A stretch of 64,000 bases of DNA from a candidate division WOR-3 bacterium (GCA_039802605.1 JBDRWW010000005.1:1-64000), one strand, 5' to 3'; shown: positions 27,001 through 33,000, numbered from the stretch's first letter. Made by a program: the numbers.

Positions 27001-30000
27001 CTTGGCGCTTTCATAAGCCTTTAAAAACAAATCCCTTTTTACCTTCTGGGGTGTTTGAACCAAATATACGAGATCCCTATTTATGTAATCCCCATTGTAT
27101 ATAACGCTATCCGGAGGTTTTATAACCGGGATTACGCAGTCCCCTTGGGTTTCAATAACCCTTTTTACAACCTCTGGGGAAATGTTTGCCCTTGCACCAT
27201 CGTGTATTAAAACATAATCGCCGGACGAGATTAAAACCCCGTTATAAACCGAATGCATCCTTTCATTGCCACCCTCAACAACCTTAACACCTAAGCCCCT
27301 CCACCCTTCAACATCTTCACTTGGAACAACCAGGACAATGTCCTCAACCTTTAAACTTTTAAAAACTTCAATTGAAAAGAGGATTAAAGGTTTATTTCCG
27401 ATTTTATAGAATTGCTTTTTAAAACCGATTCTCCTCCCCTTGCCACCCGCAACTATAACCGCACTTACCATTCCACCTGGGAGAACAGGTGTCTAATACC
27501 CTGCCTGTAAAAATCCTCAATAGCCTTTTTTAAGGCCTCATCTTCGCTTTCCCTATCGGGAAACCACAAAGAATTACCCGTAATATTCGCATCGCCTACA
27601 AATTTCTCTCCGCTGGCCAGGTCAATAAACTCTATTTTACCAATTAAGGAAAGCCTGTATGATATAACCTTTCCGGAATTGTCATACTGTTCGGGGGTTT
27701 TCACATATGCGTTAAATACGGTTTTTATCATAAGTTTGGCGTTTGAGCTATCCGTTGGCTTCAACCTTCCATCGGACCTTATAGAGTTCAAACCGTAGTT
27801 TAAAGACAAATCCTGAACCAAAGGGTAATCGGTTTTGTTTTCGGGTATAGAAAAATATACCCTATTATACCCCTTGGGTAGGCTTACACCAAATGTGTAT
27901 ATACAATTAATAACCCATAGAGCGCAGAATGGTAAGGAATTCCTTAGTGTCTTTAAGGGCAGTCTCAAAATCCACATCGTATTCCGCCACGAGGTCGCTT
28001 GCTATCTGTTCTGCGTTCCTACCCTCCTTATAGCCCTTATATATCCTTGCGGCCGTCTCGTTCATAATCAAGCTTTCCGCTTTAAGCCTTTTCGCGGTTA
28101 GAAGGCCTCCTATCCCAAGGGTTAATGCCCCCAAACCCATAAGTTTTAAAAATTCCCTTCTTGTCATGATGCAGGTATTATAAGGGTGAAAATTTACCCC
28201 CTTAGAATAATCGCCTTATGATATCCGAACCCTATAAGGGCAAGATAGTTTCAAATTTAAAGGTTTTGGATTATTCCGAAAGGCTAAACTTAGCGGAAAA
28301 TTACGGTTGGAATGTCCATAAAATCCCAGCCGGTTATGTTCTCGTGGATTTCTACGACCATACGCATAACTCCCTATCCGAGGAGCAGTTTGCCGCATTA
28401 TTCTTAGGGGATGAAGCGTATGCCGGGAGCGAAAACTTTCTAAACATTCAAAGGAAAGTTAAGGAAGTTTTTGGAAAGGATTGGGTTGTACCAGCCCACA
28501 ATATTAGGGGAGCGGAACACCTTCTGTTTAAATCCTATTTACAGGAACAAAGGTTTGCCGCAAATCATCCAACGGATACATTAAGGGTTTTGGCAAAATA
28601 CTTTAAATCGGAAATCTATGAGTTTTCCGATATTTCGGAAATTCCAAAGGACATAAAGTTCGTATATATATCCGCATCGCCAAAAAACATAGAGAAGTTA
28701 GGGGTTTGGTTGGGGGAGTTGAAAAAGGCGGGTAAGTTTTTAATCCTTGACGGTTCAAATCTGTTTTCACTCCTGGCTTTTATGAGCATTGAAAAAAACG
28801 GTGATATTGGGGATTTAAAGGGTGGGGTTTTGGAACTGGTTTCCTTTGCCGATGTTTTGCTAATTGACGCCTCACAGGATCTCTTTTCACATGTCGGCGC
28901 ATTGATTATTACGGGTTATGAGGAGGTTTATCGTAAGTTCCAAAGTTGGGTGGTTTCCTTTGAGGGTTTGCACACATACGGGGGGCTTGCGGGTAGGGAT
29001 ATGGAGGTGATTTATAGGGGGTTTGATGAGGCACTTAGGGGTGATTATCACCTTTGGAGGTATAAGGAAATTGAGAGGTTTTATAAAAAGGTTAAGGAAC
29101 TCGGTTATGAGGTTTCGCCAAAGTTCTCACCTATGGGGTTCCATATAAAGGTTGAAAATCCATACCCTTTTAACTTAGCCCTTTACCTTTCCGGCCAGGT
29201 TAGGGGGTTTGCAAAGAAGAATACCCTTTGCCTTCACATACCCAAAAGGACATATTTAAGGGAACATTACGAATACTTTGCGGATGTTTTGAAATACTTA
29301 AAGGATAAACCCCTGCCGAACCTATCGCCCGACTTTGAAACGGATTTCAAAGAGGATGAGGTCTTAACATTTACCCCCTCAAAACCCCTTTATAGGTATG
29401 ATGTTGTGCCCTTTAACGCATACCCTTACAGGTTCAAATCCGTTGAACTCCTTATACACAGGAGCAGGGAGTATAGGGAAAGGGCTATAGAGGAGGCGGG
29501 TTATAATACCTTCCTTTTGAGAAGTGAGGATGTTTATATAGACCTACTCACGGATTCGGGTACGGCGGCTATGAGCGATGAGCAGTGGGCTGATGCCTTA
29601 TATTATGAATGGAAGGACCCTTATGAGTATTTGAGGCAGGCGGTTTATGATGTTTTCGGATTTAATTACTTTATACCCACACATCAGGGAAGGCAGGCGG
29701 AGCACTTCATATCACAGGCCCTGATAAAACCGGGGCAATATGTCATAAACAATATGTATTTTACGACCACGAGGTTCCATCAGGAATATGCCGGTGGAAT
29801 ATTTGTAGATCTTATAATACCGGAGGCTCACGACCCCACATCCGAACATCCCTTTAAAGGGAACCTTGATGTTGATGCGGTTTATAGATTTATTAAGGAA
29901 AAGGGTCCAAAAAATGTGGCGTATATATGCGTTGAAACGAATGTGAATATGGCGGGTGGACAACCCGTATCCCTTGAAAATGTTAAGAAAATAAGGGAAA

Positions 30001-33000
30001 TAGCCGATGAGTTTGGAATTCCCGTAGTTTTTGATGCAACAAGGATTGCGGAAAACGCGTACTTTATAAAAACGAGGGAAAAGGGTTATGAAAATTGGAG
30101 TATAAAGGACATAATAAGGGAACTGCTTTCTTATGCGGATGCGGCAAGTATATCCGCAAAAAAGGATCCTCTAACCAACATAAGCGGATTACTCCTTATA
30201 AGGGATCCGGAGGTTTATAATAGGGTTTATGAGTTTGCAACCGCCTTTGACGGTTCCCCTTATGACGGGGGTTTGGCCGATAGGGATTTGGCCATATTGG
30301 CAAGGGGCCTTTACGAGATGACGGATTACCATTACCTAAGGAGTAGGATTCAGCAGGTTCAATATTTGGGGGAGAAATTGCATTCCCTCGGAATACCGGT
30401 TGTTAGGCCCATTGGTGGGCATGCGGTTTATTTGGATGCCAAGAGTTTTTTACCCCATATACCGCAGGATGAATATCCAGCCCAGGTTTTGGCGGCGGAG
30501 ATTTATATAGAGGGTGGGGTTAGGGTTATGGAGAGGGGAACGGTTTCGGCGGGAAGGGATCCGGAAACCGGAGAGAATAGAAAACCAAAACTTGAACTCG
30601 TTAGGATCACAATATCTAGGAGGGTATACACAACGGATCATATGGATCAGGTGATAGAAACCATATTGGGTGTTTGGAACAGGAGGGAAAGTATAAGGGG
30701 TTTGGAATTCGTTTATGAGGCGCCCTTTTTGAGGTTCTTCACATCAAGGTTCAAAAGGAAGGGATAGAGACTTCCAATTTTATCCAATCGCCCGAACCTA
30801 TTAAGTTTTCCCAAATGGTTTTATCCACGGTTTCTTTTAACAAAATCCTCCTCAAAACCTCAATGGCCAGTTGGTGTGATACCACAAAAACGACATTATA
30901 AGCGTTTATTTCGGAAAACCACAAAATATCCCTTACGGCCTTTTCGAGCCTTTCCGCCATATCAAGAACGCTCTCTCCGCCGGGTGGCGCCACATCAACC
31001 GTCCCCCAAAGTTCCGGAAATTCCTCCCTTATACCTTCGTAAAATTTCCCTTCCAATTCCCCCATATTCCTCTCCCTCAGTCTCCAATCGAGTAAAACGG
31101 GCGCATTTGGATGTAGTCGCCTTATAAGGTTTGCGGATATTATGGCCCTTTTTAAGTCGGATGAGAATATTACATCGGGATTATCCGGTATTTTTCCGAC
31201 CTTTTCCAAGAATATCTTTTTGGCCTCTTCATAAGGTTCTATATCCGCCCACCCTTGTATTCTCCTCTCATCATTCCAAACCGTTCTCGCGTGCCTTATT
31301 AGGTAGATTTTCATAATGTATCGTCCAGCCAAGGGAATTTGCTTTTGTAAAACCTAACAAAGCGGGGGTATAATATCCCTCCGAGGATATCCTTTATAAA
31401 CTGCTTAACCTCTTCGTGGGAGACCTTCCCCGAGTATATCTCGTCTATAAATTCCGCAACACTGTAAGCCCCGGGTGGCATGGCCATGGCATCGTATCCG
31501 GAGAGTTTGTAATCCATAAACTCCCAAGAAACCATATATATTGCCAAAAGGATGGCCTCAACATATTCCCTGTTTTCAACCTTTTGCAATTTCATCAACA
31601 ACCCCTTCTATTTTTCTCTTATTTTCCTCGGAAGGTTCAACCAGGGGGAGTCTATAAGGCCCCATTTTAAAACCGATATGGTTTAATGCCCATTTAAGGG
31701 GAATGGGATTGGGTTCAACGAAAAGGACTTTAAACAAGGGGTATAGTTTTAGGTGCATTTTCGGGTCCTTGGTTTTAACGAGTTGAACTACGAGTTGGGG
31801 GAAGACATTGCTGGCAACGGAAACAACCCCGGATGCCCCTATGGACATAAAGGGTAATGTCATTGAATCGTCGCCGGATAAAACGAAAAACCCTTCCCTT
31901 GCCTTTAAAAGGATTTCCGAAACCGCATCGCAAGAACCCGAAGCCTCCTTTATACCCACTATGTTTTCAATATAAGATAGTTCCGCAACGGTTGAAGGGG
32001 ATATGGAAATCCCAGTCCTTGAAGGCACATTGTATAAAACTATTGGAATTCCCACCTTTGAGACCTCCCTAAAAAACTCGTAAAGTCCCCTTTGTGAGGT
32101 TTTAAGGTAATAGGGGACAACCACGAGGGCGTAATCGTACCCCAGATTATAAACCCTTTCCGTCCACTTTAAAACACTTTTTAAGTTGTTTGTCCCAGTC
32201 CCCGCTATAAGTTTTAAACCCTCTGGCGAGTTTTCCTTCAAAACCCTAAAAACCTCATCTTTCTCTTTATCGTCCAACAACGGCGCCTCACCCGTTGTAC
32301 CCAAAACGACTACCCCATCCACACCGTTTTTGTGCTGAAACTCCAAGAGTTTGATATACTCTTCAAAGTTTATACTCCCGTCCTCTTTATAAGGTGTTGG
32401 TAAGGCCGTCCAAACCATAAACGGGAATTTTAACGGGGATTTGGAAGTCCCATTTAGCAAAAAATCCGGCTTTACAATACCCGCTAACTTATGAAGCTCC
32501 TATACGAAGGGAAATCAAAAAAGGTTTATGAAATCAGCGATAATGAGGTTTTTGTGGAGTTTAAAGATGAGGTTACGGCTTTTAACGCGCAGGTAAAGGC
32601 GGAGTTTAAGGGTAAAGGGTATTACACATTCAAAATATCCTCCCTCCTCTTTGAACTCCTGAAAAGCAAGGGAATACCAACACACTACATAGAGCCGGAT
32701 ACGAATGGGTTTAAGGCGTATAAGGTTAAAATCCTCCCCGTTGAGGTGGTTTTAAGGAATAGGGCGGCGGGTAGTATCGTTAAAAGGCTTGGTATTCCCG
32801 AAAATACGGAGTTCAAACCCCCTCTAATTGAATTTTTCTATAAGTCCGACGAGTTGGGAGACCCATTGGTTTGTAAGGAACACATACTGAGGTTTGGCTG
32901 GATGGGCGAGAAGGAGTTAAGGGAGGTTGAGGCATTAGCCTTTGAGATTACGAAAATTCTAACGGACTTTTTCGCCGGGAAAAACCTTCTACTCGTTGAT

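Follow-up and report, generated by a model that had tools for sequence, protein, structure and literature searches.

A tandem gene joining a lysine-less lyase paralog to a tyrosine phenol-lyase domain, with complementary active-site loss, in a candidate division WOR-3 bacterium

The window analyzed here, a stretch of 64,000 nucleotides from a candidate division WOR-3 bacterium (GCA_039802605.1 JBDRWW010000005.1:1-64000), carries on its plus strand one long gene whose product consists of two related but unlike domains:

28218..30767, plus strand: whole gene, 849 codons plus stop; two-domain beta-eliminating lyase
28218..29411, plus strand: N-half, residues 1-398; degenerate lysine-less paralog of tryptophanase and tyrosine phenol-lyase (TPL)
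29412..30764, plus strand: C-half, residues 399-849; catalytic TPL domain

The reading frame is free of stops and has the length of 849 aa that a preliminary description of the locus had stated. TPL of Citrobacter freundii or Erwinia herbicola (EC 4.1.99.2) is a homotetramer of 456-aa subunits. Unlike these identical subunits of ~456 aa, the chain encoded here comprises 849 aa in two halves that are only 23% identical to each other (E 8e-19), the N-half being 25% identical to the C15 paralog (E 2e-28), both values in agreement with those given earlier. On the RNA side, a single metatranscriptome contig of 230 bases maps to the gene, with DNA carry-over as a possible source.

Genes of this double length are common among relatives and beyond, in line with the wide distribution claimed before. 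Of 41 related genomes, 18 contain a complete double-length frame (827-975 aa) and three more contain fragments; genus g1 has such a frame in 4/4 genomes (the window's own genome not counted) and family f2 in 7/7, namely six full frames and one cut at a contig end. Among 240 loci fetched, 81 moreover carry a stop-free double frame, and these represent at least nine phyla. A split alpha/beta form of the double-length family was not found, as two apparent half-length forms, traced to the DNA, proved to be pieces of double-length ORFs. For the homolog P0079, the source annotation gives the C-half only (a 467-aa 'tryptophanase'), and its contig holds an uninterrupted ORF of 831 aa. Unless stated otherwise, residue counts given below refer to 98 double-length proteins (at least 780 aa) among the 120 homologs listed.

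Three segments of the N-half are of interest:

28407..28427, plus strand: N-half GDEAYAG, residues 64-70; E66 matches TPL Glu69, and Y68 matches TPL Tyr71
28866..28880, plus strand: N-half DASQD, residues 217-221; replaces S-x-K-K-D, with Q220 at the PLP lysine position
28971..29000, plus strand: N-half HTYGGLAGRD, residues 252-261; Y254 corresponds to TPL Tyr291; probable second loop donated to the site of the partner

This half belongs to the beta-eliminating lyases, scoring 45.4 bits against PF01212 (gathering score 27), and finds tryptophanase 1ax4 (E 4.4e-36) and TPL 1c7g (E 5.6e-33) in the PDB, the best solved match being the Proteus tryptophanase. Its own pocket, however, is heavily eroded in the protein as well as in its clade: relative to TPL, about 34 residues after position 124 are missing together with the N185 and R381 loops, R404 is replaced by C and S254 by D. 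The reported absence of the PLP lysine and of TDSGT was confirmed, the corresponding segments reading DASQD for SAKKD and DHTHN for TDSGT. Throughout the set, the lysine column (K257) holds K in just 8/98 N-halves, a count from the new alignment that replaces the 4/115 reported previously. Four close relatives carry K at this column. Other pocket columns are not fully random, with D214 occupied by D in 68/98 and by N in 26/98 N-halves, R100 kept in 76/98, and the K256 and K257 columns showing R in 56/98 and E in 51/98, respectively. The GDEAYAG motif is indeed retained and starts at residue 64; G64, D65, Y68, A69 and G70 are invariant across 65 double-length proteins, and in TPL numbering G67 is found in 95/98, D68 and E69 in 94/98 each, Y71 in 93/98, and A72 and G73 in 96/98 each of the N-halves. 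The same applies to the second loop, in which Y254, G255, G256, G259 and R260 are invariant across the 65 proteins (Y291 95/98, G292 and G293 97/98 each, G296 96/98, R297 97/98 in TPL numbering), and the N-half segment EGLHTYGGLAGRDME matches that of a canonical TPL exactly.

The corresponding segments of the C-half are:

29550..29564, plus strand: C-half TDSGT, residues 445-449 (TPL 49-53); invariant in 98/98 C-halves
29595..29612, plus strand: C-half ALYYEW, residues 460-465; four-residue deletion removing GDEA, with Y463 aligned to Tyr71
30153..30167, plus strand: C-half SAKKD, residues 646-650; K649 is the counterpart of TPL Lys257, which forms the Schiff base with PLP
30264..30287, plus strand: C-half DGGLADRD, residues 683-690; D683 at the TPL Tyr291 position

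This half is related to TPL, with 52-54% identity to solved TPLs (E 1.3e-164 against 1c7g), 227.3 bits against PF01212, and a structural model that superimposes on 6dvx_A with Z 58.4 and an rmsd of 1.3 Å over 447 aligned residues at 52% identity. The full set of PLP and substrate ligands that come from the same subunit in TPL is present, i.e. K649, TDSGT 445-449, Q490/G491/R492, N577, D606, R609, S646, N654 and R796, each in 96-98 of the 98 C-halves. In TPL numbering, T49, D50, S51, G52, T53, Q98, G99, R100, F123, T124, D214, S254, K256, K257, N262, M379 and R404 occur in 98/98 C-halves and N185, R217, R381 and F448 in 96/98, K648 and K649 being invariant across the 65 double-length proteins. 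The TPL-specific residues T124, R381 and F448, which separate TPL from tryptophanase, are found as T516, R773 and F840, whereas tryptophanase-like single-length proteins show D, I/V/L and H instead. The score of 757.4 bits against TIGR02618 (cut-off 720.7) noted in the preliminary description holds for the whole protein but not for residues 401-845, to which it had been assigned, as it is the sum of three stretches. By itself, the C-half reaches 633.7 bits, below the cut-off, and the N-half 130.4, so that it takes the added scores of both domains to pass this curated equivalog threshold; the tryptophanase model TIGR02617 gives 566 bits (cut-off 825.8). Since five of six single-length TPL-like controls pass TIGR02618 with scores of 733-885, the C-half would be better described as a divergent TPL than as the 'canonical' one proposed before, and its putative specificity for tyrosine rests on the three residues named above plus its position in the tree.

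In that tree, rooted with tryptophanase-like proteins, all but two of the 31 main-type C-halves group together (SH-aLRT 99) within TPL, among single-length TPLs, and FastTree likewise places the C-halves within the TPL clade. N-half and C-half trees have 18 of 30 splits in common, whereas label shuffling leaves 0.2 on average and never more than 2, and no starred conflict was observed. This congruence indicates that the two halves have co-descended from a single old fusion.

The active-site residues lost and retained in the two halves are largely complementary. The C-half lacks the GDEAYAG general-acid loop of TPL, having lost GDEA and retained no more than a variable Tyr in alignment with Tyr71; in the 27 C-halves that share this deletion, the Tyr71 column holds Y 22, S 2, N 1, L 1 and H 1. 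The earlier figure of 0/115 C-halves with the tyrosine is alignment-dependent, as HMMER and BLAST both pair Y463 with Tyr71 behind the four-residue deletion. Altogether, Y is found at this column in 26/98 C-halves, 22 of them after the deletion and four in two other double-length types. The Tyr291 loop constitutes a second complementary loop: Y is kept in 95/98 N-halves, while five other residues account for 92/98 C-halves (S 31, N 27, D 21, T 8, Q 5), and the loop lies within the predicted N/C interface. Together with the congruent trees and the published trans role of the tyrosine (see below), this matching behavior makes the core reading stronger than in the preliminary description. The strict complementary pattern is present in 87 of the 98 proteins. 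Mean conservation varies accordingly, with 0.90 for N-half 65-72 vs 0.41 for C-half 463-470, 0.91 for N-half 254-261 vs 0.76 for C-half 683-690, and 1.0 for C-half TDSGT vs 0.34 for N-half 47-51. Moreover, of 37 N-half positions with at least 90% conservation, 17 fall in the 50-residue predicted interface, where 4.6 would be expected (hypergeometric p 9e-8, calculated on interrelated sequences). As each half keeps only those active-site pieces missing from the other, both together probably form one shared active site, as had been proposed.

Structure prediction agrees with such an arrangement. The full-length AlphaFold model has a mean pLDDT of 94.5 and a pTM of 0.93. When the halves were predicted as a complex, with a custom alignment and PLP included and thus under conditions other than those of the tool's calibration, a score of 0.92 was obtained against a best control of 0.00, close to the values reported before, the applied mark being reached by 116/157 solved complexes and 2/215 mismatched pairs. 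The predicted contacts agree to 96% or more, with a pLDDT of 93 or above for the partners. It should be noted that this pass may simply reflect solved homodimers of TPL and tryptophanase that the model has learned. The predicted interface includes N-half residues 65-72. On the C-half side, it involves residues 445 and 447-449, and G448, T449 and N654 contact E66; N-half residues 256-261 contact G448, N654 and D690, and N654 meets residues 258-260. In TPL, the K+ site would be formed by Glu69, Gly52 and Asn262; a literature search for this site returned no supporting passage.

Taken together, the gene product is likely a single-chain pseudo-heterodimer of the TPL family with one composite active site. 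The C-half would provide all parts that a subunit contributes to its own site (K649, TDSGT, Q/G/R 490-492, F515/T516, N577, D606, R609, N654, M771/R773, R796 and F840), and the dead N-half would pack onto it as the two subunits do in the canonical 'catalytic dimer', contributing only the parts normally lent by the neighbor, i.e. the GDEAYAG loop with Glu66 and the general acid Tyr68, and the HTYGGLAGRD loop with Tyr254. In TPL itself, Tyr71 serves as general acid and Arg381 as base, with Thr124 being crucial, according to a passage in PMC10170061. That the tyrosine acts in the site of the partner subunit is stated for the sister enzyme tryptophanase in a passage of a published paper; the Tyr291 loop may, judging from the model, act in trans as well. 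The reciprocal site, built from the N-half's own residues and the loops lent by the C-half, would be lysine-less and dead, and the lent loops of the C-half would therefore have been freed from selection and then decayed. Each 849-aa chain would thus bind one PLP in one active site, presumably converting L-tyrosine into phenol, pyruvate and ammonium.

Several other readings of the same data have to be considered. The N-half could pair with the C-half of another chain, so that composite sites form between chains. The complementary residue pattern is compatible with either pairing, the canonical TPL tetramer consists of two catalytic dimers with interlocked N-terminal arms (according to a passage in PMC10170061), and an arm-like N-terminus is retained by both halves; as the single-chain model packs the two halves confidently onto each other, such a domain swap nevertheless appears unlikely. 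It is also rather doubtful that the N-half is more than a loop donor, with a vestigial pocket that controls the C-half by binding a ligand (non-covalent PLP, tyrosine, phenol or some other effector). Residual conservation at the D214, R100, K256 and K257 columns would fit this idea, and for the P-protein, whose N-terminal fold has no lysine, a non-covalent role of PLP in that fold has been suggested (in a passage of PMC7259800), but loss of TDSGT, deletion of the N185 and R381 loops and the changes at 404 and 254 speak against an intact pocket, and conservation gathers at the interface instead. Still less convincing, and in our view highly improbable, is a self-sufficient C-half that forms a TPL-like homodimer, leaving the N-half as a dispensable appendage such as a solubility or stability domain. 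Here, the intact own-subunit residues and the Tyr aligned with Tyr71 in the clade could be put forward. However, the GDEA deletion and the Y291D exchange have removed the context of the lent loops, the aligned Tyr varies in the deletion clade, Y71F TPL has been crystallized with a trapped quinonoid intermediate (as given in the title of entry 2ycn), and the invariance of the lent loops in N-halves across phyla argues against a dispensable N-half. Finally, an artifact, be it a pseudogene in decay or two adjacent genes merged through a frameshift or faulty assembly, as the C-half-only annotation of P0079 might suggest, is refuted by the unbroken 831-aa ORF on that contig, the recurrent double frames in relatives and fetched loci, and two independent metagenome contigs from hot-spring assemblies (runs X9 and X10) that cover the gene and cross the N/C junction without indels.

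The preferred reading, a pseudo-heterodimer with a single composite site, can be compared to several known systems. The P-protein of glycine decarboxylase (GLDC/GcvP) occurs as a single chain of ~1000 aa or as split alpha/beta subunits. Like the double-length TPL, it contains tandem fold-type-I PLP folds, of which the N-terminal one lacks the lysine (Gln instead, as here) and the C-terminal one holds PLP (according to a passage in PMC7259800). In contrast, it differs in family, reaction and partners (H-protein), and PF01212 is the sole Pfam match of the protein described here, with no glycine-cleavage model matching in NCBIfam. Eukaryotic serine palmitoyltransferase SPT1/SPT2 is also a dead/live heterodimer with one site (as described in a passage of PMC6148460), but is composed of separate, unfused, membrane-bound polypeptides of the alpha-oxoamine synthase family. 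TPL shares with the C-half the fold, the own-subunit catalytic residues and T124/R381/F448, yet here the GDEAYAG and Tyr291 loops come from a fused lysine-less paralog instead of an identical second subunit, and one site is expected per pseudo-dimer instead of two. Tryptophanase (TnaA), the sister family to which the N-half's best solved match belongs, differs in that the C-half carries the TPL residues; the same genome also encodes a tryptophanase-like paralog of canonical, single length, in which these positions are D124, V381 and H448. For the TPL/tryptophanase family, a dead/live fusion was not found described in the literature, in keeping with the earlier statement, whereas the design as such has precedents in P-protein and SPT1/SPT2.

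TPL, an enzyme of industrial use in L-DOPA production, has traditionally been regarded as a symmetric homotetramer (according to a passage in PMC10170061). With the own and the lent parts of the site on separate, linked domains, the trans role of Tyr71 becomes directly testable, as Y68 can be mutated while the catalytic domain is left untouched. For annotation, the family matters in that pipelines label double-length genes 'tryptophanase' or 'tyrosine phenol-lyase' and at times drop the N-half. As a more speculative and rather improbable extension, the emptied N-half pocket may be an effector site, yielding a ligand-gated, obligately one-site TPL, and dead/live fusion may be a recurrent route from symmetric to asymmetric fold-type-I PLP dimers, with this family as second case beside P-protein. 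GLDC has been called unusual, 'all other' fold-type-I enzymes being said to form homodimers (in a passage of PMC7259800); double-length TPL would be a second, independent exception, and this generalization, as worded there, would need softening. In any case, the family offers a clean example of complementary degeneration following duplication.

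The 849-aa product of the gene at 28218..30767 is probably a single-chain, pseudo-heterodimeric tyrosine phenol-lyase (TPL) with one composite active site. A preliminary description had read it as a dead lyase joined to a live one, both contributing to a common site; this reading is supported in its observation and interpretation, while its family score, the attribute "canonical" and a tyrosine count had to be corrected. The gene is a single open reading frame of 849 codons without interruption, located on contig C5; the assembly amounts to 1.65 Mb, with a completeness of 90%. 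An assembly artefact can be dismissed as the origin of the fusion, since contigs of two metagenome runs, neither flagged as a possible source, run unbroken through the middle of the gene (X10, 27900-29805; X9, 29246-29996). DNA of the window was found again in hot-spring metagenomes from 11 studies. The gene, its neighbours and a paralog in the same genome are as follows.

27907..28167, minus strand: PqqD-like gene, 86 aa, adjoining the fused gene (PqqD domain, E 1.5e-11)
28218..30767, plus strand: fused lyase gene
30751..31332, minus strand: histidine phosphatase gene, adjoining the fused gene on the other side
Contig C15, 6362-7666 (locus L002, 1483-2820), minus strand: single-length paralog, 445 aa, NF009709 591 bits

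As minus-strand genes lie on either flank, the fused gene stands alone without an operon, and the two flanking genes give no hint at its function. A scan around the gene returned 3 promoter-like sites (6.4 expected) and no terminators, which is uninformative, and contigs from RNA libraries are limited to 30267-30496 and the upstream edge, too little for a claim of transcription. The PqqD-like frame, which diverges from the lyase gene, has an N-terminus resembling a twin-arginine signal (MTRREFLKLMG...), which would be an unusual companion to a peptide-chaperone domain. Elsewhere in the window, type III-B CRISPR genes stand in a row at 19217-22628 on the minus strand (RAMP, Cmr5, RAMP, Cmr3; PF03787, PF09701, PF03787, PF09700), followed by a 281-aa frame without Pfam match at 22625-23470.

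Solved TPLs align with the C-half (residues 399-849) over its whole length (1c7g, E 1.3e-164), tryptophanases matching near 1e-120. In the full-length AlphaFold model (pLDDT 94.5, pTM 0.93), the C-half and C. freundii TPL superimpose with Z 58.4 and an rmsd of 1.3 Å over 447 aligned residues at 52% identity; with the full-length model as query, the fold-search matches listed cover residues 393-849 only. TPLs as best solved matches, the TPL residues T124, R381 and F448 (T516, R773 and F840 of the fused protein) and a position within the TPL clade together argue for assigning the C-half to TPL. This part of the earlier label thus stands by matches, residues and tree, whereas "canonical" does not. 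The underlying TIGR02618 score of 757.4 bits (cut-off 720.7) was reproduced, but it is a whole-protein sum over three stretches; scored apart, the C-half reaches 633.7 and the N-half 130.4 bits. Since five of six single-length TPL-like proteins of the same search pass unaided with 733-885 bits, the catalytic half is better called a divergent TPL.

Among solved structures, the N-half (residues 1-398) matches Proteus tryptophanase with E 4.4e-36 and TPL with E 5.6e-33; its PF01212 score is 45.4 bits. Its reported likeness to the C-half (23% identity, E 8e-19) and to the single-length paralog (25% identity, E 2e-28) was found again, and the N-half is a remote member of the tryptophanase/TPL family. 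The tree places it on long branches, apart from the TPL clade as well as from the tryptophanase clade, a grouping which could be due to long-branch attraction. The single-length paralog has complete canonical motifs with tryptophanase-type D124, V381 and H448 and stays under both equivalog cut-offs; a single-length tryptophanase-like copy is also present in most relatives.

How the two halves have lost their active-site residues was followed in a three-way alignment with canonical TPL (TPL numbering). The N-half lacks T49-D50-S51 (it reads D-HT), about 34 residues past position 124, the N185 loop and the 18-residue loop bearing R381, and it carries the substitutions R217 to N, S254 to D, K256 to S, K257 to Q, N262 to H and R404 to C. 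Retained are the N-terminal arm, GDEAYAGSENF, H97, R100 and EGLHTYGGLAGRDME, the latter being the same as in the canonical TPL sequence. The C-half is complete in its own-subunit residues, but a deletion has removed GDEA (ALY----YEWKD), and in its second loop, SPYDGGLADRD, an Asp stands at the Tyr291 position of TPL.

Residues were then counted in 98 double-length proteins cut into halves and aligned, comprising all of at least 780 aa among 120 listed, one of them identical to the window's own. In the C-halves, 17 own-subunit positions are kept in 98/98, and N185, R217, R381 and F448 in 96/98. The N-halves keep G67, D68, E69, Y71, A72 and G73 in 93-96/98 and Y291, G292, G293, G296 and R297 in 95-97/98, but only 8/98 have K at the lysine column. 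A strict complementary pattern, defined as Y71 and Y291 without K257 in the N-half and K257 without Y291 or an intact GDE-Y in the C-half, is found in 87 of the 98 proteins; the 11 that depart from it comprise four close relatives with K, three N-terminally truncated proteins and two pairs of other double-length types. The four relatives (P0005, P0006, P0009 and P0010, sharing 73-79% identity with the window's protein) have Lys at the N-half lysine column (DASK or DATK) where the window's protein has Gln, their N-half pocket being otherwise eroded with all remaining own-subunit residues missing. They are probably the four lysine-bearing N-halves mentioned earlier. The earlier count of no C-half with the tyrosine did not hold, as Y occupies the Tyr71 column in 26/98 C-halves. 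Y463 of the window's C-half is aligned with Tyr71 by HMMER and BLAST alike, and 22 of the 26 tyrosines follow the same 4-residue deletion, the deletion clade having Y 22, S 2, N 1, L 1 and H 1 at this position. In the C-half, the GDEAYAG motif is lost and the Tyr71 position relaxed.

In TPL, Tyr71 serves as general acid and Arg381 as base, and Thr124 is crucial (PMC10170061). That the tyrosine acts across the subunit interface, as the preliminary description had it, is stated in a paper on the sister enzyme. Because the tyrosine acts in trans and the halves hold complementary residues, an N/C pair in catalytic-dimer geometry would have a sole complete site, built from own-subunit residues of the C-half and the tyrosine loop of the N-half; the reciprocal site would be without lysine. 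After the death of that reciprocal site, the loops lent by the C-half would have served nothing and been free to decay. Conservation of the lent loops, higher in the N-half than in the C-half, bears this out: the GDEAYAG loop scores 0.90 in the N-half (65-72) versus 0.41 in the C-half (463-470), and the Tyr291 loop 0.91 (254-261) versus 0.76 (683-690). For TDSGT, the values are 0.34 (N-half, 47-51) and 1.0 (C-half, 445-449). Positions conserved to at least 90% number 37/398 in the N-half and 155/451 in the C-half; 17 of the 37 fall in the 50-residue predicted interface (4.6 expected, p 9e-8, with related sequences and a predicted interface).

For complex prediction, C-half, PLP and N-half were supplied as separate chains, with an own alignment and ligand that differ from the calibration of the tool. 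The high N/C interface score reported before recurred (0.92, best control 0.00); the mark for this score was reached by 116/157 solved complexes and 2/215 mismatched pairs. Contact agreement is at least 96% and partner pLDDT at least 93. N-half residues 65-72 and 256-261 are predicted to contact TDSGT, Q490/R492 and N654 of the C-half, the least-error pairs including N654-E66 and G448/T449-E66, and these contacts are those of the catalytic dimer. Gly52, Asn262 and Glu69* are presumably the K+ ligands of TPL. The pass may merely mirror likeness to solved TPL/tryptophanase homodimers, and the prediction is counted as consistency with N/C pairing, not as proof. From the predicted contacts and the conservation pattern, we infer that the Tyr291 loop likewise acts in trans. 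In the full-length AlphaFold model, the N-half blocks of ten residues below pLDDT 90 are 61-70 (74), 251-260 (85) and 371-380 (89); the first two are the loops proposed to reach the C-half site, and the dips of the C-half are its active-site loops. Such low-pLDDT loops are typical of ligand-free predictions and only suggestive.

A search of 41 genomes of the window's class with the N-half sequence found complete double-length frames (827-975 aa) in 18, counting the genome of the window itself, and fragments in another three. All four further genomes of the window's genus carry the frame, as claimed before, and a second genus (g2) has two full frames and two fragments among seven genomes. For family f2, six of the claimed 7/7 are full and one is cut at a contig end. 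Families f6 (1/2) and f8 (4/4) also have double-length frames, and none was found by this query in f3, f4, f5, f7, f9 and f10. Of 240 named loci taken from genomes that represent species, 81 have a double frame, none of them with canonical GDEAYAG in the C-half. By record titles, they belong to Acidobacteriota (28), Gemmatimonadota (27), Eisenbacteria (9), Myxococcota (7), Chloroflexota (3), Nitrospirota (2), Caldifarciminota (Ca. Hydrothermia; 1), Pseudomonadota (1) and Thermodesulfobacteriota (1), with no phylum given for 2. Since all 81 records are titled MAG, no cultured carrier is among them, in agreement with the proposed wide spread in uncultured bacteria.

A quick tree by IQ-TREE puts 29 of the 31 main-type C-halves in a single clade nested among single-length TPLs (SH-aLRT 99), and a single origin may also include the remaining two. 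N-half and C-half trees of the same 33 proteins have 18/30 splits in common (label shuffles: mean 0.2, maximum 2) without strongly supported conflict. The halves have moved as a pair from a time before the family dispersed over phyla. The N-half evolves faster, with 72% identity to the nearest relative versus 86% for the C-half.

Candidates for free halves, i.e. a two-gene form, were six shorter listed proteins without GDEAYAG (P0079, P0089 and P0105, 467-474 aa; P0103, P0106 and P0108, 527-605 aa) and four single-length proteins without K at the lysine column (P0163, P0207, P0226 and P0260). The two of these ten followed to DNA, P0079 and P0163, are parts of double-length frames, and no true split form was found among them; one may exist elsewhere. 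P0079, publicly annotated as a 467-aa "tryptophanase" starting at an internal Met, lies in an uninterrupted 831-aa double-length frame (L098:414-2909, a Ca. Hydrothermia MAG); gene callers sometimes clip N-halves of this family. The Holophagales locus matching P0163 (95% identical) has a double-length frame, and in the loci fetched with P0163 a single frame without stops carries the N-half motif ahead of TDSGT.

Two other double-length types occur among the listed proteins. P0021 (927 aa) and P0027 (944 aa, source name "Chroococcales cyanobacterium") follow a reverse logic: their C-half shows the full canonical set (GDEAYAG, YGGL, KK), and their N-half still has TDSGT, QGR and KK, with F at Tyr71 and C at Tyr291. 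Neither half groups within the main N or C clade. Solely the site built by the N-half would receive a tyrosine here. In P0107 (899 aa) and P0121 (910 aa, source name "Pantanalinema sp."), the N-half is seemingly alive (TDSGQ, QGR, D214, R217, S254, KK, R404, Y71, Y291), and the C-half, with V381 and A448, lies outside the TPL clade; these proteins may be tandems of two active lyases of another specificity.

The fused protein probably works like a TPL, although it misses three features by which the family is usually defined: the equivalog score for the catalytic domain alone, the general-acid loop on the catalytic subunit and identical subunits. The design is not without precedent. Of two precedents, the glycine decarboxylase P-protein occurs as a single polypeptide of >1000 aa or as an alpha/beta pair, and its N-terminal PLP fold has Gln in place of the absent active-site lysine, as does the fused N-half (PMC7259800). 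The other is SPT1/SPT2 of serine palmitoyltransferase, in which a dead and a live subunit form a heterodimer with one site (PMC6148460). PMC7259800 also describes GLDC as unusual, other fold-type-I enzymes all being homodimers; the fused TPL subfamily would be a second, independent exception to this rule. Source annotations of the double-length proteins read plainly "tyrosine phenol-lyase" or "tryptophanase", and a full-text literature search for fused or dead-domain TPLs or tryptophanases, with most subscription journals outside its scope, returned nothing relevant; the preliminary description had likewise found no account of this architecture. A single-chain pseudo-heterodimeric TPL would be of solid interest for PLP enzymology and for the study of pseudoenzymes.
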